In this document: positions 7,754 to 36,495 of the stretch, in pieces
How positions within the stretch are numbered: the stretch's first letter is position 1
How the letters are laid out: every line of letters begins with the position of its first letter
IMG/VR virus record: IMGVR_UViG_3300033183_000212
Coordinates: 1 to 64,000 of that record
Strand: one strand, 5' to 3'
DNA: 64,000 nucleotides
From: a virus
Position numbers and translations under genes: made by a program
The notes under the pieces: model-generated
Databases searched by the model: none
Seen by the model: the letters and a program-made list of their open reading frames with translations, nothing else
Told to the model about the DNA's origin: nothing

Positions 7754-8167
7754 ATGAAAACATGGTTTACTGACATGAGACAGATGCACGGAAAGTACGG
7801 TGTATCTCAATGGATTCACAACGCAAGACAAGAAGATCGAGAGAAACTTCGTAAGTTCCTTGAGTTTCGCATGAACTTCCTCAAAGAAGAGTACGAAGAA
7901 ACTCAGAAGGCTTACGCAGAGAAAGATGCAGAAGAGATCATCGACGGTCTCATCGATATCTGTGTTATCGCCATCGGTACTCTCGAAGCCTTTGGCGTCG
8001 ACGGTGACAAAGCATGGCGTGAAGTTTATCGTGCAAACATGAACAAAGAAGTTGGCGTCAAACCTGAAAGACCAAACCCTCTTGGTCTGCCTGACCTGAT
8101 TAAACCTGAAGGATGGACTGCACCAAGCCACAAGGACAATCATGGTTATATCGCTGACGCGTTTTAA
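7754..8167 (+). CDS. all-alpha NTP pyrophosphohydrolase (MazG-like); candidate dCTPase/dUTPase
   Basis: EFRMNFLKEEYEETQKA...EEIIDGLIDICVIAIGTLEAFG is a MazG-type EExxE/D helix pair. AAAGGA SD before the ATG at 7754. Confidence 0.6.
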   Translation: MKTWFTDMRQMHGKYGVSQWIHNARQEDREKLRKFLEFRMNFLKEEYEETQKAYAEKDAEEIIDGLIDICVIAIGTLEAFGVDGDKAWREVYRANMNKEVGVKPERPNPLGLPDLIKPEGWTAPSHKDNHGYIADAF

Positions 8168-9071
8168 GAGTGTATTCGATAACAAGACTCATAACTCATT
8201 GCAGTTTGAGTCTTTCGAACAGTTTCAGATGGCACTTCAGGCGCTGTCTGAAAAGGAGTGTGCGTCAAAGAAAGATGCATACTTGATCTCTCCAGCAACT
8301 TACATTGAAGGTACAACACGTGCAAATAAGAACGTAATCAACTGGGGAGGCTGGGCTGCAGTTGACGTAGATGAACACGATATTGAAGGAGACCTAAAAG
8401 ATGGACTTTATAGTAGGTTTGGTCGCTGGCATTATATTTGTTATAGTACTGCTAGCAGCACAGAGTCTCGGCCGAAGTTCCGGCTTGTCTTCCCGCTTAC
8501 ACGACACGTACAACAAAATGAGATCAAGCATTTCTGGTGGGCACTTAACTCTGAGCTTGGCTCCATCGGAGATCGACAGACTAAGGATCTCAGCCGAATG
8601 TATTACATCCCTGCGAAGTATGCTGGCGCTTACAACTTTTTTCATGTTAACGCTGGTGTGCCTCTTGATGTCGATGGTCTATGCGCCAAGTGGGAGTACA
8701 GTGATCGATCTGATTCAGCAAACTTTATCGACAGACTCCCAGAAGAGTGGCAGCGACAGATCATTGAGCACAGAAAAGCCCAGCTTGAAAATACATCGTT
8801 TCAATGGTCAGGATACAGAGACTGCCCGTTCTGGCCAAAGAAGCTAGCGTCTGAGTATCAGACAATCAATAGCACCGGTTGGTATCACAAGATGTATCAG
8901 ATCATGGTGGCTACAGCAAGTAAGGCTGTAAAGAGCCAGTATCCTATCACTGCAAATGAGATCACCGCATTATGCCGTGAATTTGATATTGATACTGGTA
9001 ACTGGTACGAGAATCGTCCGATGAACAAGGAAGCTGATCGTGCTCTTGAATACGTATATAAAAATATATGA
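8142..9071 (+). CDS. hypothetical; possibly a primase-polymerase/VirE-like N domain plus a PriCT-like C domain
   Basis: LISPATY..TTRANKNV..WAAVDVDEHD, YSTASSTESRPKFRLVFPL and SRMYYIPAKY recall BT4734/VirE-N type primase domains. This is recollection only. Confidence 0.4.
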   Translation: MVISLTRFKSVFDNKTHNSLQFESFEQFQMALQALSEKECASKKDAYLISPATYIEGTTRANKNVINWGGWAAVDVDEHDIEGDLKDGLYSRFGRWHYICYSTASSTESRPKFRLVFPLTRHVQQNEIKHFWWALNSELGSIGDRQTKDLSRMYYIPAKYAGAYNFFHVNAGVPLDVDGLCAKWEYSDRSDSANFIDRLPEEWQRQIIEHRKAQLENTSFQWSGYRDCPFWPKKLASEYQTINSTGWYHKMYQIMVATASKAVKSQYPITANEITALCREFDIDTGNWYENRPMNKEADRALEYVYKNI

Positions 9072-9077: not shown

Positions 9078-9185
9078 GGAAAAGACGGACTCATATCTGA
9101 GCAAGACCATCACTGGAACGCTAGAGGTCATGAAATTGTAGCCGATGTATTCTATGAGAGATATCTAGAGATTTGTAATACTTAA
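9078..9185 (+). pseudogene. C-terminal remnant of an SGNH/GDSL hydrolase
   Basis: A 35-codon open stretch with no start codon: GKDGLISEQDHHWNARGHEIVADVFYERYLEICNT. It resembles SGNH block V (D-x-x-H...N..G...iA). Confidence 0.35.
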
Positions 9186-9193
9186 GTACTATA

Positions 9194-9222
9194 TGTACTT
9201 TTATCTAGAAACTGATTATAAT
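9194..9222 (+). promoter_or_regulatory. promoter TGTACT-N17-TATAAT
   Basis: Lies in the 185-nt gap before the gene at 9256. Confidence 0.45.
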
Positions 9223-9255: not shown

Positions 9256-9936
9256 ATGAGTATTTTTGACAAATATCCACTAGTAACACGAGTAAATATT
9301 CCTAAGGATTCGATCGAAACATTAGGTCAAAGCACGTTTAACTCAGATGATGAGTATACACCATTGATCGAAGGCATACGTAAGATAATGCCTCAAGTGA
9401 AAGAAGTATATAAGAGTGAAATCTTAGCTGGTTTCAAACGATTCAAACGTAAGGATGCAGTTGAGTACTTTAACTCTCTTCCCATGTCTCAACGGTCGGT
9501 CGAGCTCAGTAAACAAATGGGAGACTCAATCAATAACTTGTTCGAAGAGTTACTCATCGAGTCTGGCATTAACTTACTCGTTGATCAGGGTGATGGATTC
9601 GACTGGGTCTACCAAAACAATCGTAAGACATACATCGAGGATAAAAATGCAATGTCACAGGATCTATCCAATCGTATGTGGGTAGGCAACTCTGGCTCCG
9701 GTCGTAAAGTAAGTATGCACCTTTTAAAAAGATTTGAATTAAATGAAAACTATGAGTTGGTTGGAGCTCACATCTCTTTAGTCAACCTAGATGATACGAC
9801 TCAGTATTGGGTCAATACAGCAGGAGCTCGTAGCACTTTATCCTTTACAAAGAAGGACATTAGTGGTATAATTACTATCTACGGCTCATGGGAAGCAAAG
9901 ACGAAAAACATTTTTCCACGTTGGGAGGCAATCTAA
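9256..9936 (+). CDS. hypothetical protein (possible PD-(D/E)XK nuclease)
   Basis: GAGAGGAA SD. GDGFDWVYQNNRKTYIEDKNA fits D-x13-E-x-K. Confidence 0.5.
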   Translation: MSIFDKYPLVTRVNIPKDSIETLGQSTFNSDDEYTPLIEGIRKIMPQVKEVYKSEILAGFKRFKRKDAVEYFNSLPMSQRSVELSKQMGDSINNLFEELLIESGINLLVDQGDGFDWVYQNNRKTYIEDKNAMSQDLSNRMWVGNSGSGRKVSMHLLKRFELNENYELVGAHISLVNLDDTTQYWVNTAGARSTLSFTKKDISGIITIYGSWEAKTKNIFPRWEAI

Positions 9937-12457: not shown

Positions 12458-12825
12458 ATCCAGCAAAGGTAAAGAACAGTACGTCAAAAGGATCTGCCTA
12501 CGTTCGCTTCACGCAGTGGATGGACTCAATTGGAATCCATTACTATTCATTTGTAAATCTTTCTGGTGACCCAAACTGGGACTTTAGGTTTACAACGATT
12601 GATAAACAGTTTATAATAGACATCCTCAGTAAGCATGATAAGATTGTTTGCTGGGGTGATCGCGTAACAAGTTACGTTAAGCGACTAGGATTCGAATGCT
12701 TTACACTGCCACATCCATCGGGTCTAAATAGAAAAATCAATAATCATAAATACATTACACACACTTTAAACGAATGTAAGGATTTCATCAATGAAGACAA
12801 TCATTGTACTTGGACGCGGCACTGA
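12388..12825 (+). CDS. uracil-DNA-glycosylase-fold (UDG superfamily) protein
   Basis: VIFVGLNP (motif A-like) and LPHPSGLN (motif B-like, compare Mug PNPSGLS). The start is uncertain and overlaps cd by 70 nt. Confidence 0.45.
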   Translation: MALVETDVQRSGSGCYDVIFVGLNPAKVKNSTSKGSAYVRFTQWMDSIGIHYYSFVNLSGDPNWDFRFTTIDKQFIIDILSKHDKIVCWGDRVTSYVKRLGFECFTLPHPSGLNRKINNHKYITHTLNECKDFINEDNHCTWTRH

Positions 12826-14035
12826 AGGCTGTGGCGTAACTCAATGCGCCATTCAGATGCAGAAAGTAACTGGTGCAACTATTCTATCAGCCAACGATAA
12901 GAAGTGGGGTAGAGCCAAAGGCCTAGACCTACAGCAGGTTGAAATGAACATGGGTAGCCAGTGGAAAGAGATGGCAGATCTCGTTAACGAGAACGATCTC
13001 TGTGTGGTCTACTCCATTCCATCTAAGTCCCATCCACAAGATTGTCAAGACAACTTTCTCAAGTTTCTTGACGCTGTAAAGATTCGTAAAGCCTTTATTA
13101 ATGTAGACCACAAGGCTGCATCGATTGCTCGTAACGCAAACTTAAAAGAGGTGTCTGAAAAGGTTGACGTCATTATGACTCACAGCCTGCAGAACGACTT
13201 CAGCTCGTTTATGAGTAAGAACAAAGTAAAGACTCCTTTAACAAAGATGGGTCTGGGCTTTGACTACGATGGCCACCGAGCAAAGTACTGGCGTCCTATT
13301 CAAGAGCAGCAGCACAACATGGTGCGATGGATTGGTCGCACTGCAATGTGGAAAGGTCCTGCCTTGATGATTGACTTTCATGAGCAGGCACTGATGGAAC
13401 ATGGATTCATCACAGTGATGGAAGGCCTAGAGGCTTCTATTCAATATCCCTTGGTCTTGTATCGAGATAACAAGAACGAGAATCCAGTTGATCGTCGTAA
13501 GGTTGTCAACTACTTCCGTCCAGAAAAACAACACGGTGAGACTCAAAAGTTTTTGGAAGAGTTTCACGGCCAAGAAAAGACGGGCCAAGGCGCCTACTTA
13601 TATCCCCAATACATAAATGATGAGGCCATGAAACGCATGGCTCTATCTGCGTTTGGTTCAGACCTGTATCACCTCAAGGCTGAAACATACGGCAACAACA
13701 TCGAGAACTGTCATGCCGAATGCATTGCATCTGGCACAGTCCCTTTGTTTCATAAACACTTCTGCGACAACGTGATTCACGCCAAGCAGGGTAAACCGAT
13801 TAGTCAATGCCAGTATTCAGGCACCATTGGTGTTGACTATACAAACTTTCAAGAGTGCCGAGAACTAATGGTAAAGTTAAGTAACGATCCGTCTATGAGA
13901 GATGATTGGCGTGAAATGGCTTTTGAATTTTGGAAGCAACACTCTGACGCTAAACCAGTTGTTGAAGATATTATTCAGAAGGCTGTGGATACCACTTCGA
14001 CCCAACCACAAGGACTAGAGGAATTTTTTGCATGA
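12791..14035 (+). CDS. agt: DNA alpha-glucosyltransferase, T4 Agt-like
   Basis: MKTIIVLGRGTEGCGVTQ, RWIGRTAMWKGPALMIDFHEQ and VMEGLEAS parallel my recollection of T4 Agt (MRICIFMARGLEGCGVTK, RWIGRTTTWKGFYQMFDFHEK, VMEGLERS). Similar length (414 aa). Confidence 0.75.
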   Translation: MKTIIVLGRGTEGCGVTQCAIQMQKVTGATILSANDKKWGRAKGLDLQQVEMNMGSQWKEMADLVNENDLCVVYSIPSKSHPQDCQDNFLKFLDAVKIRKAFINVDHKAASIARNANLKEVSEKVDVIMTHSLQNDFSSFMSKNKVKTPLTKMGLGFDYDGHRAKYWRPIQEQQHNMVRWIGRTAMWKGPALMIDFHEQALMEHGFITVMEGLEASIQYPLVLYRDNKNENPVDRRKVVNYFRPEKQHGETQKFLEEFHGQEKTGQGAYLYPQYINDEAMKRMALSAFGSDLYHLKAETYGNNIENCHAECIASGTVPLFHKHFCDNVIHAKQGKPISQCQYSGTIGVDYTNFQECRELMVKLSNDPSMRDDWREMAFEFWKQHSDAKPVVEDIIQKAVDTTSTQPQGLEEFFA

Positions 14036-14979
14036 AGATTTTAATCACCGGCGCTGCAGGAATGATTGGCTATCACTCTGCAATGCAGTTTAAAAAAGCA
14101 GGCCACAGCGTCATCGGCGTTGATAACTTCAATGACTATTATGAAGTTCAATTGAAGAAAGATCGAGCAAAGATCTTAAAAGATGAGTATGATGTTGAAG
14201 TACAGAACGTCGATATTCGAGATGTAGTGTGGGCAGACTCTACTCGAGATGTAGATGTAGTACTCCATCTGGCCGCGTACGCGAACCCACGCCACGCGCT
14301 CGCGGAGCCTCAGCCGTACATTGATACAAACATCACTGGCACTCAGCGCTTGGTGGAAGGTTGTGAAGCAACACAGACTCCTGTTGTATACGCTTCTAGC
14401 TCATGCGTAATGCATGGTCAACCTCTCCCTTGGAACGAGCATGATAAAGGTGCTCACCAGAACAATCCCTATGGCTGGTCGAAGTATGTTAATGAGTGTC
14501 AATTCTCTCACTCTAAAGTTCCAGCATCAGTTGGTCTAAGGTTCTTTACTGTGTATGGTCCTTATGGCCGGCCAGACATGGCGCTGTTTAAGTTCACTGA
14601 TGGTATCGTGAATCAAACACCGATTGATGTGTTTAACTATGGTAACATGAAGCGAGACTTCACGTTTGTTGATGATATCGTTCAAGGCGTAGAGATCGTA
14701 GTGAACTCTCTGCTTGACGGCAAGATTGAAAAGACGCATGACATCTTCAACATCGGCTATGGCCAACAGGTTCAGCTCATGGACTTCATTCACCGCATTG
14801 AAGCCTGTGTTGGTAAGAAGGCTATCATGAACATGTTGCCGCCTCATCCCGCCGATACACCCGAGACTTGGTCTGACACGACCAAGCTTCAGAAACTGGG
14901 TTACATGCCTACTACATCGATTCATGACGGTGTGGCTAAGTTTGTTGAGTGGTACTTGGACTACTATCTTACCGCATGA
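14032..14979 (+). CDS. NAD-dependent epimerase, UDP-glucuronate 4-epimerase-like
   Basis: ITGAAGMIGYH, YGWSKY (YxxxK) and the hallmark LRFFTVYGPYGRPDMALFKFT. Confidence 0.8.
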   Translation: MKILITGAAGMIGYHSAMQFKKAGHSVIGVDNFNDYYEVQLKKDRAKILKDEYDVEVQNVDIRDVVWADSTRDVDVVLHLAAYANPRHALAEPQPYIDTNITGTQRLVEGCEATQTPVVYASSSCVMHGQPLPWNEHDKGAHQNNPYGWSKYVNECQFSHSKVPASVGLRFFTVYGPYGRPDMALFKFTDGIVNQTPIDVFNYGNMKRDFTFVDDIVQGVEIVVNSLLDGKIEKTHDIFNIGYGQQVQLMDFIHRIEACVGKKAIMNMLPPHPADTPETWSDTTKLQKLGYMPTTSIHDGVAKFVEWYLDYYLTA

Positions 14980-16166
14980 ATTACGCAAGCATCATCCCTC
15001 TGATTGGTGGAGAAACAATTGCGATGCAGCAGGTATTCGGGAAACGACCTGAGTACCTGCTCAGCTATGAAGCGTTCTCTGCTAATGATCGCCATCTCGT
15101 AGAATACTATAACAAAGAGGTGCCCTACTATGTCCTTGATAACAGATCTGATAATCGGTTTCCTAGTGTTGACGTGGTCAATACTGTTTGCCCCTGCGCT
15201 GGCCTTAGCAGTCTATCTCCTACTTCTAATAGCGATAGTCTTACTAACGACTGGATGGTTAACACTGCAGGCTATGTCCTGGAGTCTCTATCCCCTCGTG
15301 TTTTTTGGGGTGAGAACGCCCCACGACTCGCTTCGAAGATGGGCGCGCCAGTTGTAAACAGACTGAAGGATATCGCGAGTAAGAACGGATACACCTTCTC
15401 GATCTTTAAGACTAAATCTATACTTCACGGATTGAGCCAGGTTCGTGATCGTACATTTTATTTCTTTTGGAAAGGTAATACCGTACCTGTTTTCAAATAT
15501 ATAAAAAGAGAGCACGAAAAGATTGAGGAAACGATTCGTTCCGTGAAACGCGATCCAAGTGATCCAATGAGTGTCCTCGCTAACAAGCGTGTTCCATCAG
15601 AGAATCCGTACTATAAGTACGTACTAGAAGAGATCGAGGGTGGCATTACTCATCCAGAGTTTGTGCAACTTATCGATAAGACAACGAATCCAATGCACTA
15701 TATTGAGGAAAAGAAAGTCTCTTACCTCGAGGTTGCAAAGTGGATGAAGACCCACGGCTTTGAGAAAGAATCTCTTCGCTGTGAAGTTGTCCACCGCAAG
15801 TTGTCAGAAGGTGGTAATGTAATGCGTAAGCTGGTAGAGATTCCTAAAGGACACATCGGCGCGTTTGTTGGTCACTTTCCTACTCAGCTCACTCATCCCG
15901 ATGAAGATCGTTTTCTTACGATTAGAGAATGTCTGTCTATCATGAAGTTACCTACAGACTTTAACCTACAAGGTGGAGTCCGTAACATCAATCACATCTG
16001 TCAAAACGTACCAGTGTCGACTGCAAAAGACATGGCATGGAACGTACAGGAACACCTACTTGGAAATCTAGAAACAATAGAGACACCGTTCCTCATACAG
16101 GACAATAAGACACAAACCTACGAATACGACAAGCAGAGTTTACAACTTGATGATTTTATGGTATAA
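14976..16166 (+). CDS. DNA (cytosine-5)-methyltransferase
   Basis: IPLIGGE (motif I variant), CPCAGLS (PC motif IV), WGENAPRL (ENV motif VI) and TIRECLSIMKLPTDF. ATGA overlap with the upstream gene. Confidence 0.85.
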   Translation: MNYASIIPLIGGETIAMQQVFGKRPEYLLSYEAFSANDRHLVEYYNKEVPYYVLDNRSDNRFPSVDVVNTVCPCAGLSSLSPTSNSDSLTNDWMVNTAGYVLESLSPRVFWGENAPRLASKMGAPVVNRLKDIASKNGYTFSIFKTKSILHGLSQVRDRTFYFFWKGNTVPVFKYIKREHEKIEETIRSVKRDPSDPMSVLANKRVPSENPYYKYVLEEIEGGITHPEFVQLIDKTTNPMHYIEEKKVSYLEVAKWMKTHGFEKESLRCEVVHRKLSEGGNVMRKLVEIPKGHIGAFVGHFPTQLTHPDEDRFLTIRECLSIMKLPTDFNLQGGVRNINHICQNVPVSTAKDMAWNVQEHLLGNLETIETPFLIQDNKTQTYEYDKQSLQLDDFMV

Positions 16167-19450: not shown

Positions 19451-19631
19451 AGAAGAACTGTTGGCAAGAGCTGAGTGGTTTAGTAATCGACTCGATGAGG
19501 TCATTCAGCTGGCAGACGACGAGCAGGATCTGAAGATCTTATCGTTTGTCATGATGAACAAGTCGTGTCATTCACTAGATATGATTGCGGGTGAAGAAGA
19601 GAGAAAGTTTCATTTTAGAGAGTTTTCATGA
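19431..19631 (+). CDS. hypothetical protein (non-ATG start)
   Basis: ORF fills the gap to thyX. Only TTG/GTG starts are available. Confidence 0.35.
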   Translation: MRSIVTEEELLARAEWFSNRLDEVIQLADDEQDLKILSFVMMNKSCHSLDMIAGEEERKFHFREFS

Positions 19632-20314
19632 AAGCAAAATTAATTAGCGTTTCGAAACCCACAAGGGAGATGTACAGTGAAGGAATTGATAACGCGCAGG
19701 ACCTTATCGCATTCTGCGCCAGGGTCTCCAATCCCAGTAATCAGCTCAATCTCGGCACGGCAGAAAAGCTCATCAGATACCTGGCCAAACACAAGCATTG
19801 GTCACCCTTTGAAATGGTTTCAGTTTGTGTCGAAGTCGAAACAACCCGAGACATCGCGCGTCAGCTATTACGACATCGTTCCTTTTCCTTCCAAGAGTTT
19901 TCCCAACGCTACGCCGATCCAACGAAAGATCTGGAATTCGTACATCGGGATGCACGTCTTCAAGACGAGAAAAATCGACAGAACAGTATAGAACTCGACA
20001 TGACTGATGAACACCGTCGGCTATCTTACATGTGGGAGAATCTTCAGCGTGATCTGATCGAGAAAGCCAAGGATGTTTATACTTGGGCTATTAAAAATGG
20101 TATCGCTAAGGAGCAGGCAAGAGCCGTACTGCCAGAAGGCCTGACTATGTCCAGGCTGTATGTGAATGGAACCATCCGCTCGTGGATCCATTATATTGAG
20201 CTGAGGTCCGGCAATGGCACTCAGCTAGAGCATATCGAGCTGGCTCGAGCCTGTGCTTGTGCCATTCACGAGGCCTTCCCTATGATCGAGGAATACCTCC
20301 AGCCTCATGATTAA
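19628..20314 (+). CDS. thyX: flavin-dependent thymidylate synthase ThyX
   Basis: RHRSFSFQEFSQRY is the ThyX signature (RHR..S.N/Q..S.RY). Confidence 0.9.
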   Translation: MKAKLISVSKPTREMYSEGIDNAQDLIAFCARVSNPSNQLNLGTAEKLIRYLAKHKHWSPFEMVSVCVEVETTRDIARQLLRHRSFSFQEFSQRYADPTKDLEFVHRDARLQDEKNRQNSIELDMTDEHRRLSYMWENLQRDLIEKAKDVYTWAIKNGIAKEQARAVLPEGLTMSRLYVNGTIRSWIHYIELRSGNGTQLEHIELARACACAIHEAFPMIEEYLQPHD

Positions 20315-20347
20315 TACTTTTTTATTAAAAGTAATACTTTTTTATTA
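20312..20347 (+). repeat. two direct copies of TAATACTTTTTTATTA spaced 20 nt apart
   Basis: 20312-20327 and 20332-20347 are identical. Each is an inverted repeat TAATA-N6-TATTA. Confidence 0.8.
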
Positions 20348-20370
20348 TAAAAATATAAACTTTTGATATA

Positions 20371-20399
20371 TTTACTTTTCCTGAGAACTGATATAGAAT
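20371..20399 (+). promoter_or_regulatory. cassette promoter copy 1 (TTTACT-N17-TAGAAT) with upstream cttttGATATA
   Basis: Part of the repeated motif cttttgatatatttacttt. Confidence 0.6.
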
Positions 20400-20432
20400 A
20401 CACTATATCAACAGTTAAAAAGGAAGGTAAAA

Positions 20433-20534
20433 ATGATCAAGAACTTACTACTCGAGCTTTTCCCTGCGGTGCTCCTGGCTGCCCTCATCGGGATGCCTTT
20501 TGCCCTGTACTTCTTATTTGTGATGCAACCTTAA
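20433..20534 (+). CDS. 33-aa hydrophobic peptide (MIKNLLLELFPAVLLAALIGMPFALYFLFVMQP)
   Basis: Below the 60-aa cutoff of the track. Strong AAGGAAGG SD, correct distance from cassette promoter copy 1, and a single TM helix. Confidence 0.45.
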   Translation: MIKNLLLELFPAVLLAALIGMPFALYFLFVMQP

Positions 20535-20574
20535 TACTTTTGGATAAGAATGCAAAATGAATACTTTTGATATA

Positions 20575-20603
20575 TTTACTTTTGCAATTCACTAGTATAT
20601 AAT
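20575..20603 (+). promoter_or_regulatory. cassette promoter copy 2 (TTTACT-N17-TATAAT)
   Basis: aatgaatacttttgatatatttactttt is identical to copy 4 over 28 nt. Confidence 0.65.
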
Positions 20604-20635
20604 TGATCTATCGATTGTTGGAAAGGACTCTCAAA

Positions 20636-20974
20636 ATGGTTATCACTTGCCGCACTCAAATCTTCGAAAACTTCGGTTCGGTCGCTCAGCCCGACTGGAA
20701 AGCTCAAGGTATGCGTCTGTACGTGGTCCGTGACGTGTCCGAGTGGCCCGAGGACGCTGTGCTCGTCAAGACGTGGTTCGAGCATCAGGTTTGGACCGAG
20801 GAGGAAGGCTATGACGAGATCGTCATGGAGACTGGCGAGCTTGCCTCTACCGAGTACCTTGACGAGCTCGGCGGCCGCTACATTGATGTGACGAACGAGT
20901 TTCGTAACAACGAAGAGGCGTTCCGTGAAAAGTTTGCGTTTACCATCAACAGCTGGGAACTTGAGAAGATTTAA
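20636..20974 (+). CDS. hypothetical protein, GC-rich cassette cargo
   Basis: ATG at 20636 with a GGAAAGGA SD downstream of cassette promoter copy 2. About 60% GC in a 60-nt sample. Confidence 0.55.
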   Translation: MVITCRTQIFENFGSVAQPDWKAQGMRLYVVRDVSEWPEDAVLVKTWFEHQVWTEEEGYDEIVMETGELASTEYLDELGGRYIDVTNEFRNNEEAFREKFAFTINSWELEKI

Positions 20975-21014
20975 ACCGCTATAAAGATTTCTTAAACTTT
21001 CTAGGAGTTTCTCC

Positions 21015-21209
21015 ATGTCTTCAATTCAAACCCCCACCTGCCCGGCTTGCAAAGCCGAGATGAAACCCTACTATTACGTAGGGTACTACGAGGAGTTCTC
21101 GTGCTGGCGTTGCGAGTGCGAGGTCACTCCCGGCTCAGTCGTCCTGGCCGGCGGCTGGTCGAGTGGCACGGACGGAATGCCGGCTGAGGATTACCTCGCC
21201 TTAGAATAG
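21015..21209 (+). CDS. zinc-ribbon protein, GC-rich
   Basis: CPACK...CWRCEC. AGGAG SD. Followed by a terminator. Confidence 0.55.
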   Translation: MSSIQTPTCPACKAEMKPYYYVGYYEEFSCWRCECEVTPGSVVLAGGWSSGTDGMPAEDYLALE

Positions 21210-21215
21210 GCGAGG

Positions 21216-21234
21216 CCCGCTTCGGCGGGTTTTC
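21216..21234 (+). terminator. rho-independent terminator
   Basis: cccgc-ttcg-gcggg followed by tttt. Preceded by a second hairpin, cctcgcc/ggcgagg. Confidence 0.65.
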
Positions 21235-21772: not shown

Positions 21773-21801
21773 TTTACTTTTCTCGAGATCTGTGGTATAA
21801 T
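21773..21801 (+). promoter_or_regulatory. promoter TTTACT-N17-TATAAT
   Basis: Its spacer shares ctcgaga.tct.tgg with the promoter at 50857. Followed by an about 80-nt GC-rich leader. Confidence 0.6.
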
Positions 21802-26539: not shown

Positions 26540-27403
26540 ATGAAATCAATCCTCGCAGTCCTTGCTGCTACAGTCACGATCACAGCACAGGCAGCAATCA
26601 CTGGCGCTGGTGCGTCATTCCCGGCTCCGGTCTACTTCAAGTGGGCTGAGGCATATAAACAAGCGACTGGTAAAGAAGTTAATTATCAGTCAATCGGTTC
26701 GTCCGGTGGTATCAAACAGATCGTTAAGAAGACGGTCGACTTTGGTGCTTCGGATGTTGCACGTAAACAAGCTGACCTCGATAAGGATGGTCAAGTACAA
26801 TTCCCCACAGTGATGGGTGGAGTTGTTGTCGTTGTCAATCTACCAGGCGTGGAGAAAAACCAGATCAATCTTACAACCGATCAAGTCGGTAAGTTGTTTG
26901 CAGGGAAGGTAAGCAACTGGAAAGATTTGGATTCTTCGTTGCCTGACCTACCTGTGACAGTTGCACACAGAGCTGATGGTTCTGGTACGACTGCAATCTT
27001 CACAACCTACCTTGCAGAGAACGCCAAAGACTTTCATCTGAAAGCTGGTAAGTCTGTTAAGTGGGAAGGTAACACTGTTGGTGGTAAGGGTAATGCCGGT
27101 GTTGCGGCTATGGTCTCTAAGATCAAAGGAGCAGTCGGCTATGTGGAATATGCTTTTGCTAAACAAAACAATCTTACGACAACTACTCTCAATGGAGTAG
27201 CACCAAGTGCCGATACGTTCAAGTCAGGTGACTGGGACATCACTGCACAGACATTCATTATTGTATACCCCGATGGTAAGAATACAAAAGAGGTTTACAA
27301 GTTCTTTGAATGGTGTTATAATAATGACCAGATTGCAGAAGGTCTAGATTATGTTCCTCTGTCAGAAAAGACAAAGAACGAGTCAAGAAAACTTTGGCAA
27401 TAA
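26540..27403 (+). CDS. pstS: phosphate ABC transporter substrate-binding protein PstS
   Basis: Signal peptide plus ITGAGASFPAPVYFKWAEAYKQATGKEVNYQSIGSSGGIKQI and GSGTT. AGGAGAA SD. Confidence 0.9.
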   Translation: MKSILAVLAATVTITAQAAITGAGASFPAPVYFKWAEAYKQATGKEVNYQSIGSSGGIKQIVKKTVDFGASDVARKQADLDKDGQVQFPTVMGGVVVVVNLPGVEKNQINLTTDQVGKLFAGKVSNWKDLDSSLPDLPVTVAHRADGSGTTAIFTTYLAENAKDFHLKAGKSVKWEGNTVGGKGNAGVAAMVSKIKGAVGYVEYAFAKQNNLTTTTLNGVAPSADTFKSGDWDITAQTFIIVYPDGKNTKEVYKFFEWCYNNDQIAEGLDYVPLSEKTKNESRKLWQ

Positions 27404-27479
27404 ATAAATTATGGATCTGACGAGCAGTAATGTGTCGTCTTCACCGGATGCCTAGAGCGAGCAAACCCAGCTATCGGAT

Positions 27480-27830
27480 CCTAAAACATGGCTCACCCCT
27501 CTGCCTAGTGTACGGGTGGGTTCTCTTATATTGCTGTATGAAGCAATGAGAAAGGTGTCTTGGACGGCGGTTCGATTCCGCCCACCTCCACCATAAGGGT
27601 ACTAAGATAAGCTTGGTACTCGATGCATAGGGAACGCCTCCTCTGGTATCCTTATGATGGGGGTGTACTGGTTTCGACAGGGCAATGAGTAACAGAGTGG
27701 ACAGCACGTCAGGCGATCGACGTTAATGAAGCGAAAACTATAAATGCCAATGATGAGGTATTTTTGATGGCAGCTTAGTGCTAGATGGGGATTCGCAGGT
27801 GTTCCTTATTACCCAAACACCTGCACTATC
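27480..27830 (+). ncRNA. ssrA: circularly permuted (two-piece) tmRNA gene. The acceptor piece ends at CCA 27591-27593, the coding piece starts at 27659, and the tag ORF is 27746-27778.
   Basis: ggacggcggttcgattccgcccacctccacca is a T-arm plus acceptor 3' strand plus ACCA. 65 nt downstream, gggggtgtactggtttcgacaggg is the tmRNA 5' consensus. 27659-27665 pairs with 27583-27589 and includes a G3:U wobble. Resume frame: GCC AAT GAT GAG GTA TTT TTG ATG GCA GCT TAG = ANDEVFLMAA*. The outer ends are approximate. Confidence 0.8.
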
Positions 27831-27832
27831 AT

Positions 27833-27840
27833 TATAAATA
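27833..27840 (+). promoter_or_regulatory. T4-type late promoter box TATAAATA
   Basis: Exact octamer 8 nt before the desaturase ATG. Confidence 0.35.
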
Positions 27841-27848
27841 GTTATATT

Positions 27849-28481
27849 ATGGAAACAATAATCATAGCAATTATATTAGGTCTTGTATGGAGCCAAGTGA
27901 TATCGCATTTTGGCGCTAGTATATTATTACACCGATATTATTGTCATAAACAATTTAAAGTGCCAAAATGGTTTGAATGGGTTGGTTTATCCATGTTAAT
28001 GATTGCATGTATAAGAACACCAATAGGATGGATTGCATCTCATCGAATGCATCATGCATATTCAGACGGCCCTAAAGATCCTCATTCTGTAAAATACGTA
28101 GGATTCTGGAAAGTTTTATTTACTATGTGGGATATTCCAAAAATACCTATTAAATTTGCAAAGGATTTGTACCAAAATAAGACACTGGTATTTTTCCATA
28201 ATAATTGGCTAAAAATATTGATCTTTGTTTGGATTATATCCTATCTAATCAGCCCATATTTTTTTATTTCGTTTGCTCTTACACCATTTATTTTTGCTAA
28301 AATAGGATTTGGTTTATTAAATACTGTTGGACATAAAAACGGTCCAAGTAATGTGCCGTGGTTGAATCTTTTTATTGCTGGGGAAGGCTATCATAAAAAT
28401 CACCATGATAATGGTAAAAGAATTAGATTACATAAATTTGATACCGGTGGGTGGATAGCTGAAAAGGTATTTAAACCATGA
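27849..28481 (+). CDS. membrane fatty-acid desaturase (delta-9/stearoyl-CoA desaturase family, short form)
   Basis: Three His boxes: HRYYCH, HRMHHAYSDGPKDPH and GEGYHKNHH. Multiple TM segments. Confidence 0.8.
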   Translation: METIIIAIILGLVWSQVISHFGASILLHRYYCHKQFKVPKWFEWVGLSMLMIACIRTPIGWIASHRMHHAYSDGPKDPHSVKYVGFWKVLFTMWDIPKIPIKFAKDLYQNKTLVFFHNNWLKILIFVWIISYLISPYFFISFALTPFIFAKIGFGLLNTVGHKNGPSNVPWLNLFIAGEGYHKNHHDNGKRIRLHKFDTGGWIAEKVFKP

Positions 28482-29101
28482 AAAAACATGAATTGCCTTT
28501 AGTTGCTGAATTTGATTTAAAAATTGATCTACTAAGACTTAAAGAAGCATCAGACAATATAGCTTACACATATACTAATGTAATTGATGCAAATCCGGGA
28601 TTATGTATGAATCATAAGGAACTCGTAAAAAATGTATATGATAATTTTGAACAAATTAATTTGACAACAGCATCTGAAATTTTATCATCAACAACTTCAA
28701 TCAAAGAAAGATTAAAACGTAAAGAAGAACATCTATTTAATGTTCCAACCAAAAATTATACTAATAGTATTTTTGAAGAAATAGTAACACAATTAAAAGC
28801 ACCTGCAAGTAGAGTTAGACTTACTAAATTAGCAGCTGGAAAGGAAATTCCTTTTCACGTTGATTATGATGTTAATTATGCTGTAAGATGTATTGTTCCA
28901 ATTTACACAAATACAAAAGTAATCAATCAATTTAAAATTGCTGATAAAATTGAAAGTTATAATTTAGAAGCTGGTAAAGCTTATTTTTTGAATATAGGTT
29001 ATCCACATAGAGTGCATAACAATTCAAATGAAGATAGAATTGCGTTAATGTTTAGTTTGGATGGAACAGATGATTTGGAATCATTTAGAAATAGCAGATG
29101 A
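28478..29101 (+). CDS. cupin-fold 2OG/Fe(II) hydroxylase (Asp/Asn beta-hydroxylase-like), paralog 1
   Basis: IPFHVDYDVNYAVRCIVPIYTN ... GYPHRVHNNSNEDRIALMFSL. Confidence 0.55.
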   Translation: MKKHELPLVAEFDLKIDLLRLKEASDNIAYTYTNVIDANPGLCMNHKELVKNVYDNFEQINLTTASEILSSTTSIKERLKRKEEHLFNVPTKNYTNSIFEEIVTQLKAPASRVRLTKLAAGKEIPFHVDYDVNYAVRCIVPIYTNTKVINQFKIADKIESYNLEAGKAYFLNIGYPHRVHNNSNEDRIALMFSLDGTDDLESFRNSR

Positions 29102-29858
29102 AGTTCAAAATAAAGGCTATAAAGTTTTTAATGATATAGAATTTTCTGAACAACAATATATTGATTTTATGAAAGGCTTTGGTGAGTTAGAAGCACCAGG
29201 CCTTTTTATGAATCCAAAAAAATATCCTCAGTTGTTTATTGTTACCGGAATGAAAGATAAAGAAGGTAACAAAATTGGCATGTTTGGAGATGGCGAATTA
29301 GGTTGGCATTCAAATGGTAATAGCCGACATTTAATTGATAAAATTTTAATCAGTTTATATTGTGTACAAGGTGATCCTAATACTACACTAAGTGTATGCA
29401 ATACCTCAGATCCATTTTACCATCTTTCCGAAGAAGAACAAGAATACTGGAAATCAATTACTATTCGTTTAAAATTTCAGAATGATACAATGTATCATTT
29501 GGATGAAGATGATCCTGAATTAGAATTCATGAGTAAAAATAAAGGTAGTATTCGTAAACTGGTTGATGTTCATCCCCATACCGGAAAGTATTATTTCTAT
29601 TTCCCTTATCATTTTATTGTTAAAGCATGGGAAGGTAAAAGGCAAATCAATCATGAAAAAATGATTGAAAAATTGAAACCAATTATATTTAGAAGCAAAT
29701 ATCAATATCATCATATTTTTATGAAAGGTGATATGCTTTTAATGGATCAGTTTACTACACTACATAGAAGAACACCAGTGATGGGTAACAGACTTTTATG
29801 GAGAATTGCAGGGGATTATCAAAACGTATGCAAGGCGAACAAATCAAACGAAAGTTAA
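29061..29858 (+). CDS. TauD/TfdA-family 2OG/Fe(II) dioxygenase-like protein with H-S-N in place of HxD
   Basis: LGWHSNGN, LVDVHPHTGKYYFYF and GDMLLMDQFTTLHRR align with TauD blocks WHxD, HP.tG and GD..iWDN...H. Confidence 0.55.
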   Translation: MEQMIWNHLEIADEVQNKGYKVFNDIEFSEQQYIDFMKGFGELEAPGLFMNPKKYPQLFIVTGMKDKEGNKIGMFGDGELGWHSNGNSRHLIDKILISLYCVQGDPNTTLSVCNTSDPFYHLSEEEQEYWKSITIRLKFQNDTMYHLDEDDPELEFMSKNKGSIRKLVDVHPHTGKYYFYFPYHFIVKAWEGKRQINHEKMIEKLKPIIFRSKYQYHHIFMKGDMLLMDQFTTLHRRTPVMGNRLLWRIAGDYQNVCKANKSNES

Positions 29859-30700
29859 AAGCGTATCCTTGGGTTGATATTCCATGTCATAAAGATGTTT
29901 TGTTTCTATTAAAAGAACAAGATTTATCTCAGACATATTATAAACGTGGAAGCGGTAAAGCAACTCGTGATTTAGATAAAGTTGAAAAAGCACATCGAGA
30001 ATGGGTTAATGATATTATAGACCTATCGGAGTTTCCTCATTGCTATTTTACTAATGGTATAACAGATGCAATTCATCTTTGGCGAATAATAGAAACCAGG
30101 CCTTGGCAAAAATTCGATGGCGATTATCAATATATAAATATAATAGGTTCTGAGAGTTCTATTTGTTATGACGCATCAGACATTGATTTAAATAAACCAT
30201 TATATGTCTCAATTCCATCTGCTATTGATGGTAATATATTTGATTTAGATGACATTAGTGCTCCAGTTATTCTAGATTGCACATATGTAGGATCTACACA
30301 AATTAAAAAAATTAAAGTACCAAAAAACACAGAACAAGTGTTCTTTAGTTTCTCAAAAGGGTTTGGACTGATAGGACAGAGACTAGGCTTAATATATACA
30401 AAAGAGCCACACCCAATCTTAGATAGATTAAAAAAATTCGAAAACTGGAATTATGCAGGAGTAAAGACTATTGAATTATTGATTAATAATTTTAAAGTCG
30501 ATACTATGTGGAATAGATATAGAAAAAGACAATTAAAGATTTGTAGTCAATATAATTTTGAACCATCTGATTGTTTCTTTCTAGCAACTACAAAAGATGC
30601 ATATTATGCAAAACGGAGAAGGATGAAATTCAGCGACGATGCTCGTATTTGTATAACACCTCTATTTGATGATTACTTAAGTACAGAGAATAGTAAATGA
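29828..30700 (+). CDS. PLP-dependent aminotransferase-like protein (short)
   Basis: FFSFSKGFGLIGQRLGLIY matches the SxSK..G..G.R.G PLP-lysine block. The start is uncertain (29798 or 29828). Confidence 0.45.
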   Translation: MQGEQIKRKLKAYPWVDIPCHKDVLFLLKEQDLSQTYYKRGSGKATRDLDKVEKAHREWVNDIIDLSEFPHCYFTNGITDAIHLWRIIETRPWQKFDGDYQYINIIGSESSICYDASDIDLNKPLYVSIPSAIDGNIFDLDDISAPVILDCTYVGSTQIKKIKVPKNTEQVFFSFSKGFGLIGQRLGLIYTKEPHPILDRLKKFENWNYAGVKTIELLINNFKVDTMWNRYRKRQLKICSQYNFEPSDCFFLATTKDAYYAKRRRMKFSDDARICITPLFDDYLSTENSK

Positions 30701-31302
30701 CTATACGAAGATTTAAATTACAATACGACATTAATAAATTTCGAGATGAAATAGATGCGCTATGGCCTTTAGAAAAATACGGGTTTCACGGTGAATTTCC
30801 TACTCCTAATGGAACATATTATCAAAATATAAGAGAAGGCGAAATGCCTTCACATTTAAGAAAAGCTATTGAAAATAGTATTGGTAAAGCAATAAAAGAT
30901 TATTATTTTTTATGGGACTGGAGATGCTTAACTAAAGTTTTGTTAAAACACAGAGATGGTTGGGAAGATGCAAAGGGCAATCCAGATGGGATTTCAGAAT
31001 TCGATAAACATGTATTTGAAGAAGATGCTGAAATAATAGGAGTTCCTCCTCTAACGGTTGTAGTAGCATTAGAAAACAATTTTAGAATTGATATTCAAGA
31101 TAGTAAAACCAGTGAATGGAGAAGCGTAACATATGGTCCTGGAGATATAATATTTTTTAATAATGCAAAAGATCTTCATGGTGGTGAAGTATTAAATGAT
31201 CCAGATAACATACCAAGGAGATCTCTTAATTGTTATGTTGGACATGACCAACTTGCTAATGATTTAACATTCTGGGATAACCCGGATTATGATAAACAAT
31301 AA
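30697..31302 (+). CDS. hypothetical protein (possible 2OG oxygenase fold)
   Basis: GDIIFFNNAKDLHGGEVL...RRSLNCYV is only suggestive. Confidence 0.45.
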   Translation: MTIRRFKLQYDINKFRDEIDALWPLEKYGFHGEFPTPNGTYYQNIREGEMPSHLRKAIENSIGKAIKDYYFLWDWRCLTKVLLKHRDGWEDAKGNPDGISEFDKHVFEEDAEIIGVPPLTVVVALENNFRIDIQDSKTSEWRSVTYGPGDIIFFNNAKDLHGGEVLNDPDNIPRRSLNCYVGHDQLANDLTFWDNPDYDKQ

Positions 31303-31930
31303 TATCCCTTGGCCAGATATCCATATTAATAATGGAATAGGTAGAGTACCACTCAAAGAAAATTATGCCTTTGAAGATATGTGGTATCTTGATACACCTC
31401 AAGCTTTACCTATTTTTGAAAAACAAGCTGATATTATTATCGAACATCAATCAAAGGGAATAGTTGATATTGGATGTAGGCATGGACCTATCCTTGATAT
31501 TTTATATAAAAGAGGATATACAAATTTCAAATATATGGGATTTGACACTTCTGAAGAACCTATCAGATTAGCTCAAGAAAAATGGACGAATTCTAATAAT
31601 ATAGAATTCCGTAATGAAAGTTGGGAAAATATGGAAACTTTCATTGTTGATTTTGATGTCGATCAAGTTATCTGGTCAGGAGTATTGTTATATAAGCCAG
31701 AAGATCATTTTAATTTTTTTAATAATATTACAAAAGATTTTTATAATGCACGTAATGCAATTATACAAGAACCTTGTAACGATCAAAAATATTGGGATGA
31801 AAGATTAATACTTAACACAATCTCTGAAGAATTTGAAATTTATAAAAAGGAATATAAATCATTTAAAGAGCATATAATCAATGCCGAAATATTTGCTGGA
31901 CGTAGAATGATAATTGATATTGAATTATGA
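31289..31930 (+). CDS. SAM-dependent methyltransferase
   Basis: Motif I IVDIGCRHGPILDIL. Confidence 0.65.
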   Translation: MINNNIPWPDIHINNGIGRVPLKENYAFEDMWYLDTPQALPIFEKQADIIIEHQSKGIVDIGCRHGPILDILYKRGYTNFKYMGFDTSEEPIRLAQEKWTNSNNIEFRNESWENMETFIVDFDVDQVIWSGVLLYKPEDHFNFFNNITKDFYNARNAIIQEPCNDQKYWDERLILNTISEEFEIYKKEYKSFKEHIINAEIFAGRRMIIDIEL

Positions 31931-32544
31931 AAATTTGCGGAATAGCTTTTAGTTACAGTAAAAACTCTATGGCTTTTCGTGGATTAAGTTTGATGAACAA
32001 TTATTTAAATTTTCAATGGTATTGCCAAGTAACAGATATTCCATTATGCAATAGTAATATTCCGGATGGTAATGTTCCTAAATCCGTAGAAAGATTATGG
32101 AATAATATGAATAAATGTGACGTATTTGTTTTCTCTATACCAGAAACAACCGGCCATTATTCAGCTGCATTTAAAAACGTAATGGATTGGTTTGTTGTTA
32201 AATCTCAATTTAATTCTGATCTTGGTCAGAAATATCCAATGTCAAATAAACCGGTTGTTGTAATAACATTTACGCCAGTTTATAAAAATGCTGGCGACAG
32301 ACATTTTAATATGACTAAACATATATTGCAAGAAAAGCTTGGCGCAGATGTCATAGATATGATAGTTAAAAACGATTGTTGGCAACATGTTATACCAAAT
32401 AACTTTGAATTTGTAGCTGAAGAATGTAAACAAATATTAAGTATACCCCTTGAAAATAAAATTATTGAAAAGCCAGACATGGCTAAAGAGGTAGATGATT
32501 GGCAAAAAAAATATAAGGAATGGAACAATAAATGGCAAAATTAG
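31927..32544 (+). CDS. flavodoxin-fold NAD(P)H-dependent FMN reductase-like protein
   Basis: MKICGIAFSYSKNS... and DVFVFSIPETTGHYSAAFKNVMDW resemble the PF03358 pattern (tPeYn.s....lKnaiDw). Confidence 0.55.
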   Translation: MKICGIAFSYSKNSMAFRGLSLMNNYLNFQWYCQVTDIPLCNSNIPDGNVPKSVERLWNNMNKCDVFVFSIPETTGHYSAAFKNVMDWFVVKSQFNSDLGQKYPMSNKPVVVITFTPVYKNAGDRHFNMTKHILQEKLGADVIDMIVKNDCWQHVIPNNFEFVAEECKQILSIPLENKIIEKPDMAKEVDDWQKKYKEWNNKWQN

Positions 32545-32966
32545 ATACTACTGGATTGTTAATTTATAAAGACAATGATTTTAAACCATTTGAAATTGAT
32601 GAAACCAAACGTTATGTAATGTGTGGAGTTCCTGGAGCATTTACGCCTGGATGTACAGAAAAACATCTTCCGGGATATGTACAAGCATTAAATCAATTTT
32701 ATGAAAAAGGTATAGATCATATTATTTTCATGGGGGTAAATGACCCATGCGTAATGGATGCATGGAATAAGTTTCATGGTCATAAAGACATCATTGCGGT
32801 TGCTGATGCTGAAGCTGAGTTTACAAAAAGAATGGGATTTGATCATGATTATGGTCCTGGAATGGGTATTCGTTGCCGCCGCTTTGCTATTTTAATTGAA
32901 AACGGTGAAATGAAAAAAGAGATGCATATTCCATTTGCTCAAGGTGCGTTAGGGGAAATTTATTGA
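32532..32966 (+). CDS. peroxiredoxin (Prx5/atypical 2-Cys type)
   Basis: VPGAFTPGCTEKHLPGY active-site block. Confidence 0.8.
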   Translation: MAKLDTTGLLIYKDNDFKPFEIDETKRYVMCGVPGAFTPGCTEKHLPGYVQALNQFYEKGIDHIIFMGVNDPCVMDAWNKFHGHKDIIAVADAEAEFTKRMGFDHDYGPGMGIRCRRFAILIENGEMKKEMHIPFAQGALGEIY

Positions 32967-33607
32967 TTGATGCCGTTGCCGAATATTTAGATATTGATTT
33001 AGAGATTGAAAAATATCATTTAATATTTGATCAAGTAAATCAAGGCTATAATACATTTGGTAAAACCGAATGGCATAGCTATTCATTAGAAGATAATATC
33101 ACTGGAAAGGATTTACCGTTCTTAGAACTGTTTGAACCAATCCTTATTGAAATGCGCAATGTGCATCCTCATATACAAAAAAGATCTACTGGTTTTAATT
33201 ATGCAAATTCTTTAGAAAAAGATTTGTTTATTCATACCGATGTAGATTATGATACAAAACACCCAAAACATTTTAATATGGTTATTCCCATATTTGGTAA
33301 AGCTATAATAAATTATTATGAAACCCGTGAAGAAGAGATTTGGTTACCAGAAAAAAATGCACATGGCTATGCATATTATCATGAATTTTATTTGCGTAAT
33401 AAATCTGGCTATGAAGAATTTAAAAAGAAAAGAAAGATTGGTGAAATTATAGTAGAAGATAAGCCGGTTTTAATTGATACTAATCTAATGCATGGTGTTG
33501 AAATCCTTAAATCTCCTCGTTGTGCTTGGGTCACACGCTGGAATAATATTCCAGTTCACCATGATTTTTATACATGGAAATCTAGAGTAGAAAGAATATT
33601 AAAATGA
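32963..33607 (+). CDS. cupin-fold hydroxylase-like protein, paralog 2
   Basis: LFIHTDVDYDTKHPKHFNMVIPIFG and LMHGVEIL resemble 28478-29101. TTG start overlaps the upstream stop. Confidence 0.45.
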   Translation: MIDAVAEYLDIDLEIEKYHLIFDQVNQGYNTFGKTEWHSYSLEDNITGKDLPFLELFEPILIEMRNVHPHIQKRSTGFNYANSLEKDLFIHTDVDYDTKHPKHFNMVIPIFGKAIINYYETREEEIWLPEKNAHGYAYYHEFYLRNKSGYEEFKKKRKIGEIIVEDKPVLIDTNLMHGVEILKSPRCAWVTRWNNIPVHHDFYTWKSRVERILK

Positions 33608-34965: not shown

Positions 34966-34985
34966 AAATTAATACCTTTGATATA

Positions 34986-35014
34986 TTTACTTTCTCGTTT
35001 CAATAGTATATAAT
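34986..35014 (+). promoter_or_regulatory. cassette promoter copy 3 (TTTACT-N17-TATAAT)
   Basis: aatacctttgatatatttactttc, at the right edge of the AT-rich island. Confidence 0.65.
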
Positions 35015-35044
35015 ACAACTTCCACTGTTAAAAAGGAGTTTGTT

Positions 35045-36001: not shown

Positions 36002-36011
36002 TCTGGCGGCT

Positions 36012-36204: not shown

Positions 36205-36230
36205 CTATCTAACGTTGGAAAGGAACTGAT

Positions 36231-36488: not shown

Positions 36489-36495
36489 GGAGATT

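Follow-up and report, generated by a model that had tools for sequence, protein, structure and literature searches.

Four copies of a promoter cassette in a 64,000-nucleotide (nt) stretch of viral DNA (IMG/VR record IMGVR_UViG_3300033183_000212, positions 1 to 64,000; the window) are probably the best-conserved members of a phage early promoter family of the promoter-early/stem-loop (PeSL) type, which also serve as homology patches for gene shuffling. A 17-mer, TTTGATATATTTACTTT, occurred exactly at 20362, 20566, 34977 and 36167 in the whole window, each time on the plus strand and in an intergenic position, none of the four lying inside a gene. When up to 3 mismatches were allowed, only one further match appeared, and it was unrelated; dinucleotide shuffles gave a mean of 0.57 matches, and none of 100 reached 5. 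All element counts cover this 64-kb window of the phage genome. The promoter scan placed a -35 TTTACT inside the motif of every copy, followed by a 17-nt spacer and a -10 hexamer (TAGAAT, TATAAT, TATAAT and TATTAT in copies 1 to 4, ending at 20399, 20603, 35014 and 36204). A preliminary description of this DNA had proposed the four-copy motif, the spacer and the -10 hexamers, and all were recovered at the same coordinates; the possibility it had raised, that the motif also falls inside coding regions, was not borne out.

Mean pairwise identity among the four ungapped copies was 85% in the block from -51 to -36, where 12 of 16 positions were invariant, 100% in the -35 hexamer and 83% in the -10 hexamer; it was 39% in the remaining spacer and 34% in the ungapped leader. 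Copies 2 and 4 were identical across 31 nt (CAAAATGAATACTTTTGATATATTTACTTTT, -57 to -27), slightly longer than the 28 nt originally given. Together the four copies form a subclass, TTTACTTTT, with a conserved A/T-rich block at -56 to -36 (CAAAATGAATACTTTTGATATA). Their leaders were about 20-27 nt long and of the two types already recognized, GTTAAAAAGGA in copies 1 and 3 and GTTGGAAAGGA in copies 2 and 4. All four leaders placed an AAAGGA ribosome-binding site 6-9 nt before the ATG, and the distance from the -10 hexamer to the ATG was 26-33 nt. Among the four, only copy 4 had a TGn before the -10. Copies 1 and 2 were spaced 204 base pairs (bp) apart and copies 3 and 4 were 1190 bp apart. The copies and the units behind them were as follows:

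20312-20327 and 20332-20347, plus strand: two tandem TAATACTTTTTTATTA boxes, AT-only mini-hairpins (TAATA/TATTA); the first TAA is the ThyX stop
20350-20399, plus strand: promoter copy 1, with upstream block 20350-20370, -35 TTTACT 20371-20376 and -10 TAGAAT 20394-20399
20400-20534, plus strand: copy 1 leader (GTTAAAAAGGAAGG ribosome-binding site) and the p33 gene (20433-20534), encoding a hydrophobic peptide of 33 amino acids (aa)
20554-20603, plus strand: promoter copy 2, with upstream block, -35 20575-20580 and -10 TATAAT 20598-20603
20604-21233, plus strand: unit 2, with leader GTTGGAAAGGA, p112 (20636-20974), p64 (21015-21209) and an intrinsic terminator (21212-21233)
34965-35014, plus strand: promoter copy 3, with -35 34986-34991 and -10 TATAAT 35009-35014
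35015-36110, plus strand: unit 3, with leader GTTAAAAAGGAG, the DUF932 gene (35045-36001) and a GC-rich hairpin cluster (36004-36103, main stem 36012-36038)
36111-36128, plus strand: GTAATAC-TTTA-GTATTAC hairpin box upstream of copy 4 (region -11.8 kcal/mol, z -2.9)
36155-36204, plus strand: promoter copy 4, with -35 36176-36181 and an extended -10 TGgTATTAT ending at 36204
36205-37015, plus strand: unit 4, with leader GTTGGAAAGGAA, p85b (36231-36488), p60 (36496-36678), p101 (36668-36973) and an intrinsic terminator (36995-37015)

The open reading frame (ORF) of 33 aa noticed earlier behind copy 1 was a genuine coding sequence: the last 16 codons of p33 differed from those of contig L323 by 7 nt in 6 codons, and all differences were synonymous. 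The gene spans described for units 2 and 4 were also found, although 20636-21209 turned out to hold two genes and 36231-36973 three. The p64 protein carries CxxC...CxxC. A minus-strand ORF at 20576-21016 was considered as a rival to p112 and rejected as a chance-type long ORF in GC-rich DNA, p112 being conserved on the plus strand. Copy 3 directly adjoins the start codon of a divergently oriented gene on the minus strand (34543-34965) and lacks an upstream stem-loop; orthologous promoters were present in L103, L107, L263, L273, L282, L295 and L304.

The relatives examined were 72 related loci and environmental contigs (numbered with the prefix L) from scans of IMG/VR and metagenomes. Allowing 1 mismatch in 20 nt and requiring a correctly spaced -10, the IMG/VR and metagenome scans placed the core before at least 12 unrelated first genes, including DUF932, p60, p85b and ORFs of 232, 222, 184, 116, 89, 79, 72 and 55 aa. 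L264, L277 and L299 held two copies each, 460-1500 bp apart and near-identical over about 90 nt (spacer, -10 and leader), with different small ORFs behind them, indicating that selection on contact positions alone is insufficient to account for the likeness. An exact 17-mer scan of IMG/VR returned 100 stretches, about 8 of them with the full promoter; the rest were chance matches in AT-rich DNA. A 20-mer scan of bacterial and archaeal genomes gave 17 single unrelated matches, with no clue to the host and no sign of a host promoter or prophage.

The region of copies 1 and 2 was compared through two short contigs, L322 and L323, because the contigs of the nearest relatives end inside thyX. The 80 ThyX-anchored loci examined lacked both a family promoter and any homologue of p33, p112, p64 or p85a. 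L322 was 90% identical to the window from 20622 (the last leader bases before the p112 ATG) to 21743. The two were unrelated in the promoter spacer, the -10 and most of the leader, identity breaking off inside ...TTTAC. The promoter in front of p112 has thus been swapped between L322 and the window, copy 2 being kept in L323 and replaced in L322. L322 also had an extra 73-aa gene, with a joint within the spacer of the promoter at 21773. These two joints, both from the one relative L322, are the crossover points located inside the element.

At copy 4, p85b was present behind the promoter in the window and L104 and absent in L103, L107, L291 and L295, where the same promoter drove p60 directly. 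L020 carried the promoter, p85b and a gene for a small peptide at another locus, beside homologues of the window's 61.5-63.8 kb. The spacer and leader of copy 4 were closer to those of this L020 p85b promoter than to those of the syntenic L103 promoter, and the nearest match to copy 4 as a whole was the L020/L266/L303 promoter, likewise driving a p85b homologue. A conserved membrane peptide of about 41 aa (M-I-(F/L)-(M/L)-Y...FTNNLGQLIAAMIIAFVA...) stood behind p85b in L104 (7440-7565) and L020 (4619-4745). It is missing in the window, where p85b abuts p60 and a different peptide, p33, has its own promoter in copy 1. A replacement was seen at another site: the promoter syntenic to a diverged window member at 9194 was a perfect 24-mer in the L032/L060/L100 group (DNA polymerase 80% identical) and drove an unrelated 239-aa gene. 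Within genomes, the copies carried concerted variants, GATATATTT in 4 of 4 window copies, GACATATTT in 2 of 2 in both L103 and L295, and AACTAATAT in 2 of 2 in L107, unlike the flanking diagnostic bases of the core, which followed orthology. The preliminary description had looked to related phages for recombination joints and for presence or absence of the cassettes, and both were found: indel or replacement joints lay at or inside the elements (L322, p85b, 9194), and p85b, the first gene at 9194 and the 73-aa gene varied.

The regions upstream of copies 1, 2 and 3 had fold z values of -1.55, -1.07 and -0.02, indistinguishable from shuffles (copy 1, -7.2 kcal/mol). The region upstream of copy 4 (36002-36110) folded at -44.2 kcal/mol with a z of -4.1, and the hairpin box of copy 4 recurred in L264, L277, L299, L273, L295 and L020. 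Many relatives carried a (G)TAATACTTT box ahead of the core, where it stood in either orientation and at times formed a palindrome (GTAATACTTTAGTATTAC); the window held 8 matches to TAATACTTT vs 1.0 expected, and copy 3 lacked the boxes. The equivalents of the copy 1 boxes in L104 and L107 read TTAGAAC(C)TTTTTCTA, both arms being changed and the hairpins energetically marginal. In four cases the TAA of a box was the stop codon of the upstream gene: ThyX (20312), p33 (20532, where its TAA opens the next TAATACTTTT box), a 202-aa ORF of L020 (3075) and the L100-group homologue (~3268) of the window's 309-aa gene at 8142-9071. The cassette in effect supplies a stop codon to whatever sits upstream. 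A Rfam scan of the window detected no RNA family on any leader or intergenic element, the sole match being a transfer-messenger RNA (tmRNA).

A hairpin terminator had been reported after each GC-rich unit. Credible intrinsic terminators were indeed present at 21212-21233 (-13.7 kcal/mol) and 36995-37015 (-18.2 kcal/mol); the region 3' of DUF932 (36002-36110) was strongly structured and had no U-tract. A T4-type late motif, TATAAATA, stood at 37033-37040, directly after the terminator at 36995-37015 and 14 nt before a 458-aa gene. It had 10 matches in the window vs 3.8 expected, including one at 27833-27840, and it directly followed DUF932 in L105, L106, L108 and L109. A late promoter was rejected for the four copies, this late motif being found elsewhere (e.g., 37033), as was a middle promoter, no MotA-box-like motif being present. 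An integration host factor (IHF) site and a canonical E. coli UP element were also tried for the upstream block, and both misfitted its register by eye.

The four copies belong to a wider set of promoters in the window. The pattern TTTAC-N18-TATAAT with at most 1 mismatch had 23 matches vs 2.3 expected, and 20 of these were on the plus strand directly upstream of genes. The promoter type of the window, T(T/G)TAC(A/T)-N17-TATAAT, was found at about 20 sites, many of them with TGn before the -10. A strict consensus, (A/T)G-T(T/G)TACA-N17-TATAAT, often with TGG before the -10, could be written, and many sites fell within the last codons of the upstream gene; examples on the plus strand are 2759, 7702, 9844, 11084, 12589, 16139, 27294, 46931, 50857, 52393, 55537 and 61924. 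Three other, weaker members, none of them inside a gene, differed in their upstream parts:

9176-9222, plus strand: diverged family member with a GTAATACTT box, -35 TGTACT 9194-9199 and -10 TATAAT 9217-9222, driving the ORF at 9256-9936
21773-21801, plus strand: member of the family lacking the upstream block, TTTACTTTT-N14-TGgTATAAT, immediately behind the stop codon of p89
3976-4021, plus strand: hairpin-promoter, with a GC hairpin (3976-3991) abutting TTTACT-N17-TATAAT (3993-4021), before the DNA polymerase gene

The last of these is the classic stem-loop plus early promoter arrangement. The truncated last ORF of the window (63606-64000, plus strand) was a homologue of the 202-aa ORF of L020 (L020 2469-3120), whose stop lies inside a GTAATACTT box that is followed by a family promoter; synteny with L020 thus predicts a further copy of the element immediately beyond the window's right edge.

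PeSLs combine an AT-rich upstream region, a -35, a -10, a ribosome-binding site and a start codon with a stem-loop, and those of T4/PST have the promoter consensus TTTACW-N17-TAYWAT (PMC2839356; PMC4122927). They have been described in RB49/phi1, T4/PST and KVP40/nt-1 (Arbiol et al. 2010, PMC2839356; Comeau et al. 2014, PMC4122927). In a sequence comparison the window elements showed 6 of 8 listed PeSL features. The likeness includes repeated intergenic composites with the -35/N17/-10 consensus of T4/PST, adjacent small ORFans that differ between close relatives, crossovers inside the element, tandem arrays in relatives and insulating terminators. The first reading of these elements as PeSL-like regulatory cassettes was thus upheld by the T4/PST consensus and by the same element preceding unrelated genes in relatives. 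They differ from known PeSLs in belonging to an uncultured Kyanoviridae/Melnitz-related clade rather than to Tevenvirinae or Schizo-T-evens, in having a longer and more sequence-specific upstream block (CAAAATGAATACTTTTGAYATA), and in a stem-loop that is mostly a marginal AT-only hairpin on a GTAATAC box and is supported at 1 of 4 copies. Promoter and terminator activity and mini-circles are known for the described PeSLs, whereas here the comparison is one of sequence alone. The early promoters of T4 have been characterized as 'uber UP/-35/TGn/-10' with additional consensus regions (Hinton 2010, PMC2988021). The window promoters resemble them in a (G)TTTAC-type -35 instead of TTGACA, in a strong A/T-rich consensus upstream of the -35, in the TGn of many members and, presumably, in recognition by host sigma-70 RNA polymerase; they differ in that TGn occurs at 1 of the 4 copies (copy 4) and that the block is off the E. 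coli UP-element register, by eye.

In the proposed mechanism, each unit would consist of the -56 to -36 block, TTTACT, a 17-nt spacer, the -10, a short leader with AAAGGA, 1-3 small genes and a hairpin or terminator. Host sigma-70 RNA polymerase would fire the four promoters directly after infection, and the upstream block would act as a UP-element-like contact, making them very strong. Terminators would insulate each unit from the next, and that at 36995-37015 would shield the downstream gene carrying the late-promoter motif. The same 30-45 nt (about 90 nt in some relatives) stand in one orientation before many genes and would therefore provide homology patches, which phage recombination may use to delete, insert, replace and re-promote small genes, as in the PeSL mechanism. 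The sequences themselves show the anatomy of the element, its conservation in relatives, the varied cargo behind it and the breakpoints within it, whereas promoter timing and strength, UP-element function and the recombination mechanism are inferred.

Several observations weigh against this interpretation. Spacers and leaders of the window copies were unconserved, showing that the four are not recent duplicates, and selection on promoter function could by itself account for the likeness of these copies. Copies 3 and 4 were syntenic with the copies of the nearest relatives and are therefore stable, not visibly mobile. A statistically supported upstream stem-loop was present at copy 4 only. No second promoter was found between p85b and p60, contrary to the prediction of mini-circle integration, and one joint, at the 3' end of p112 in L323, lay away from any promoter. 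Early timing, strength and start sites would, moreover, be carried over from T4.

The four copies might instead be ordinary strong early promoters, kept alike by purifying selection for RNA polymerase and ribosome contacts, with intergenic sites merely tolerating breakpoints. This explanation is possible, although we consider it rather unlikely. It accommodates the restriction of conservation to functional positions (39% identity in the spacer), the vertical inheritance of the syntenic copies 3 and 4 with their genes and the occurrence of one strict consensus at about 20 window sites. T4 early promoters likewise have an extended consensus beyond the -35 and -10 (PMC2988021), and the authors of the work on cyanophage S-PM2 judged PeSLs sparse there and the PeSL mechanism unlikely. 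However, tandem copies in L264, L277 and L299 were near-identical through non-contact positions before different genes, both breakpoints against the 90%-identical L322 fell inside the element, and copies within a genome shared derived variants that were absent from orthologous copies in sister genomes.

A dedicated, co-evolving DNA-binding protein, either of the phage (possibly virion-delivered) or of the host, is a very unlikely occupant of the -56 to -36 block and the (G)TAATACTTT boxes, and it is just as improbable that such a protein activates or shuts off this promoter subclass or catalyzes site-specific exchange of the cassettes. The excess of TAATACTTT matches and the placement of the boxes, in either orientation, ahead of the core of several relatives would be expected of such sites. 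Moreover, a 9-nt segment between ACTTTT and TAC varied in concert within genomes while the flanking bases followed orthology, and in L104 and L107 the boxes and the 5' element of the promoter had changed together (AATAC to AGAAC). The PeSL authors, too, left open a targeted recombinase or helper protein. On the other side, the analysis turned up no candidate protein, and short-patch gene conversion between copies accounts for the concerted variation just as well. The block, A/T-rich and containing an A-tract and a T-tract, looks as a UP element should, and copy 3 lacks the boxes.

The cargo genes were compared in GC content, and in GC content at third codon positions (GC3), with a background of 71 genes (GC 0.423 +/- 0.031):

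p112: GC 0.534, z +3.6, GC3 0.69
p64: GC 0.585, z +5.2, GC3 0.72
DUF932: GC 0.510, z +2.8, GC3 0.59
p85b: GC 0.512, z +2.9, GC3 0.54
p60: GC 0.415, not distinct, GC3 0.51
p101: GC 0.467, not distinct, GC3 0.49

The GC-rich cargo reported earlier was thus real for p112, p64, DUF932 and p85b and did not extend to p60 and p101. Its foreign, higher-GC origin failed as a general claim. The order DUF932, (p85b), p60, p101 ... DUF6267 was kept in the closest of the 72 related loci, and the identities of DUF932 and DUF6267 to their relatives were 85/88, 85/89, 80/82, 79/81, 69/66, 69/70, 66/67 and 66/68%. Synteny, together with identity in step with DUF6267, indicates that DUF932 is a vertically inherited resident. 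Its promoter retained the diagnostic AAATT-A(A/G)TAC flank in all orthologues. The GC of DUF932 was above that of its surroundings in every relative (e.g., 0.51 vs 0.40 in L103, 0.48 vs 0.38 and 0.45 vs 0.36), and in low-GC contigs its GC3 was 0.45 vs medians of 0.20-0.31; the loci compared for GC were L103-L115, L273, L282 and L304. The excess is a gene-specific compositional bias, for which expression-linked selection is one possible cause. A Pfam and PHROGs scan of the cargo gave DUF932 (phrog_1221) as the sole family match.

Among the cargo genes, only p112, p64 and p85b look like variable cargo. The ORFan p112 had only two homologues (90% and 82% identity) among 5.8 billion proteins, p64 was found only beside p112, in L322, and p85b was present or absent at the copy 4 site among relatives and located elsewhere in L020. 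No donor was identified for p112, p64 or p85b. That all three GC-rich units are recent, moron-like acquisitions from a foreign donor of higher GC, each having arrived with a promoter and terminator of its own, would fit the excess of 2.8-5.2 standard deviations in four genes, the rarity of p112 and the bounding of units by promoter and terminator, but is highly improbable given that DUF932 is syntenic in the closest loci, diverges along with DUF6267 and exceeds the GC of its surroundings in each of them, that p60 and p101 are syntenic and not GC-distinct, that the cassette promoters have the phage's own consensus rather than an imported one, that much of the local GC contrast comes from a flanking low-GC island, and that no higher-GC donor was found.

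This island (27849-34965 and 37054-38430) had a GC of about 0.30 and a GC3 of about 0.18, and much of the strong visible contrast at 35-37 kb arises because it flanks the cassettes. Its genes had GC of 0.24-0.35 and GC3 of 0.11-0.23, vs 0.42 and 0.44 elsewhere, and it begins exactly at the 3' end of the tmRNA; the late motif at 27833-27840 marks this junction. The DUF932 cassette interrupts the island. Metabolism-like genes in it encode a fatty-acid desaturase/hydroxylase, an Asp/Arg beta-hydroxylase cupin, a TauD dioxygenase, an S-adenosylmethionine (SAM) methyltransferase, a flavin mononucleotide (FMN) reductase and a redoxin. The minus-strand genes at 34106-34965 and the 458-aa gene had syntenic homologues in the more distant, lower-GC L110, L111, L114 and L115. 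These homologues suggest that the island is a mosaic acquired from an AT-rich relative. The tmRNA itself, at 27468-27869 on the plus strand, is of the permuted two-piece kind (Rfam beta_tmRNA 133 bits, tmRNA_permuted 142 bits; ARAGORN tag ANDEVFLMAA*), indicating that the minus-strand ORF at 27471-27707 is spurious. A family-type promoter, TTTACA-N17-TATAAT, was found at 27294-27322, about 150 nt upstream. Melnitz-like phages are known to carry tmRNAs of this two-piece kind (PMC9004378).

Among the proteins encoded in the window are a family-B DNA polymerase, a DnaB-type helicase, ribonucleotide reductase, ThyX, a DNA alpha-glucosyltransferase and a C5-methylase-like protein. Its DNA polymerase was 53.5% identical to that of Phage C48C1 and about 49% identical to those of cyanomyophages; its DUF932 protein was 55.9% identical to that of C48C1 and 54.9% to that of Methylophilales phage Melnitz. 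Both C48C1 and Melnitz have been placed in Kyanoviridae. By these identities the window is assigned to an uncultured T4-like phage of the Melnitz-related group in Kyanoviridae. A near-identity DNA search of sequenced phages with both cassette regions returned no match, showing that it has no close sequenced relative. A DNA-modification gene set lay at 12791-16166 and 19628-20314, comprising the DNA alpha-glucosyltransferase (PF11440), the 405-aa C5-cytosine-methylase-like protein, whose gene was absent from the collinear L060/L100 relatives, and ThyX. A sugar-modification cluster at 57541-63607, partly common to L020, included a nicotinamide adenine dinucleotide (NAD)-dependent epimerase/dehydratase, an FkbM methyltransferase, two family-25 glycosyltransferases and several unassigned ORFs of about 230 aa.

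Two other kinds of mobile gene unit resemble the cassettes in part. Like the morons of lambdoid and other phages, they are small genes with their own promoter and terminator between conserved genes; morons, however, have no conserved flanking repeat, whereas here the regulatory element is a repeated family native to the phage. As with integron cassettes, an analogy drawn by the PeSL authors, small promoter-served cassettes are exchanged at repeated sites, but each cassette here has its own promoter and exchange is presumably homologous. No integrase match was seen among the scanned proteins, in a window not searched exhaustively for integrases, and no attC-like site was found.

If a dedicated factor did act on these sites, it would mean integron-like, protein-directed cassette exchange or control in this T4-like clade. 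The factor would be a virion-delivered activator of early transcription or a site-specific cassette recombinase, and its specificity would co-evolve with its sites, giving GATATATTT, GACATATTT or AACTAATAT, and AATAC or AGAAC. As early promoters that double as homology patches, the cassettes leave the current understanding of how T4-like phages work unchanged. They extend the PeSL concept from T4-like phages of coliphage, Yersinia and Vibrio type to an abundant uncultured aquatic clade related to Melnitz. PeSLs are previously unreported in this lineage: the Melnitz paper, which gives BPROM-predicted early promoters, does not mention them, and in S-PM2 they were judged sparse. The exact promoter consensus can be used for annotating early genes in Melnitz-related phages, and p33, p112, p64 and p85b, as putatively strongly expressed early genes with fast turnover, form a shortlist for screens of host-takeover and anti-defence functions.

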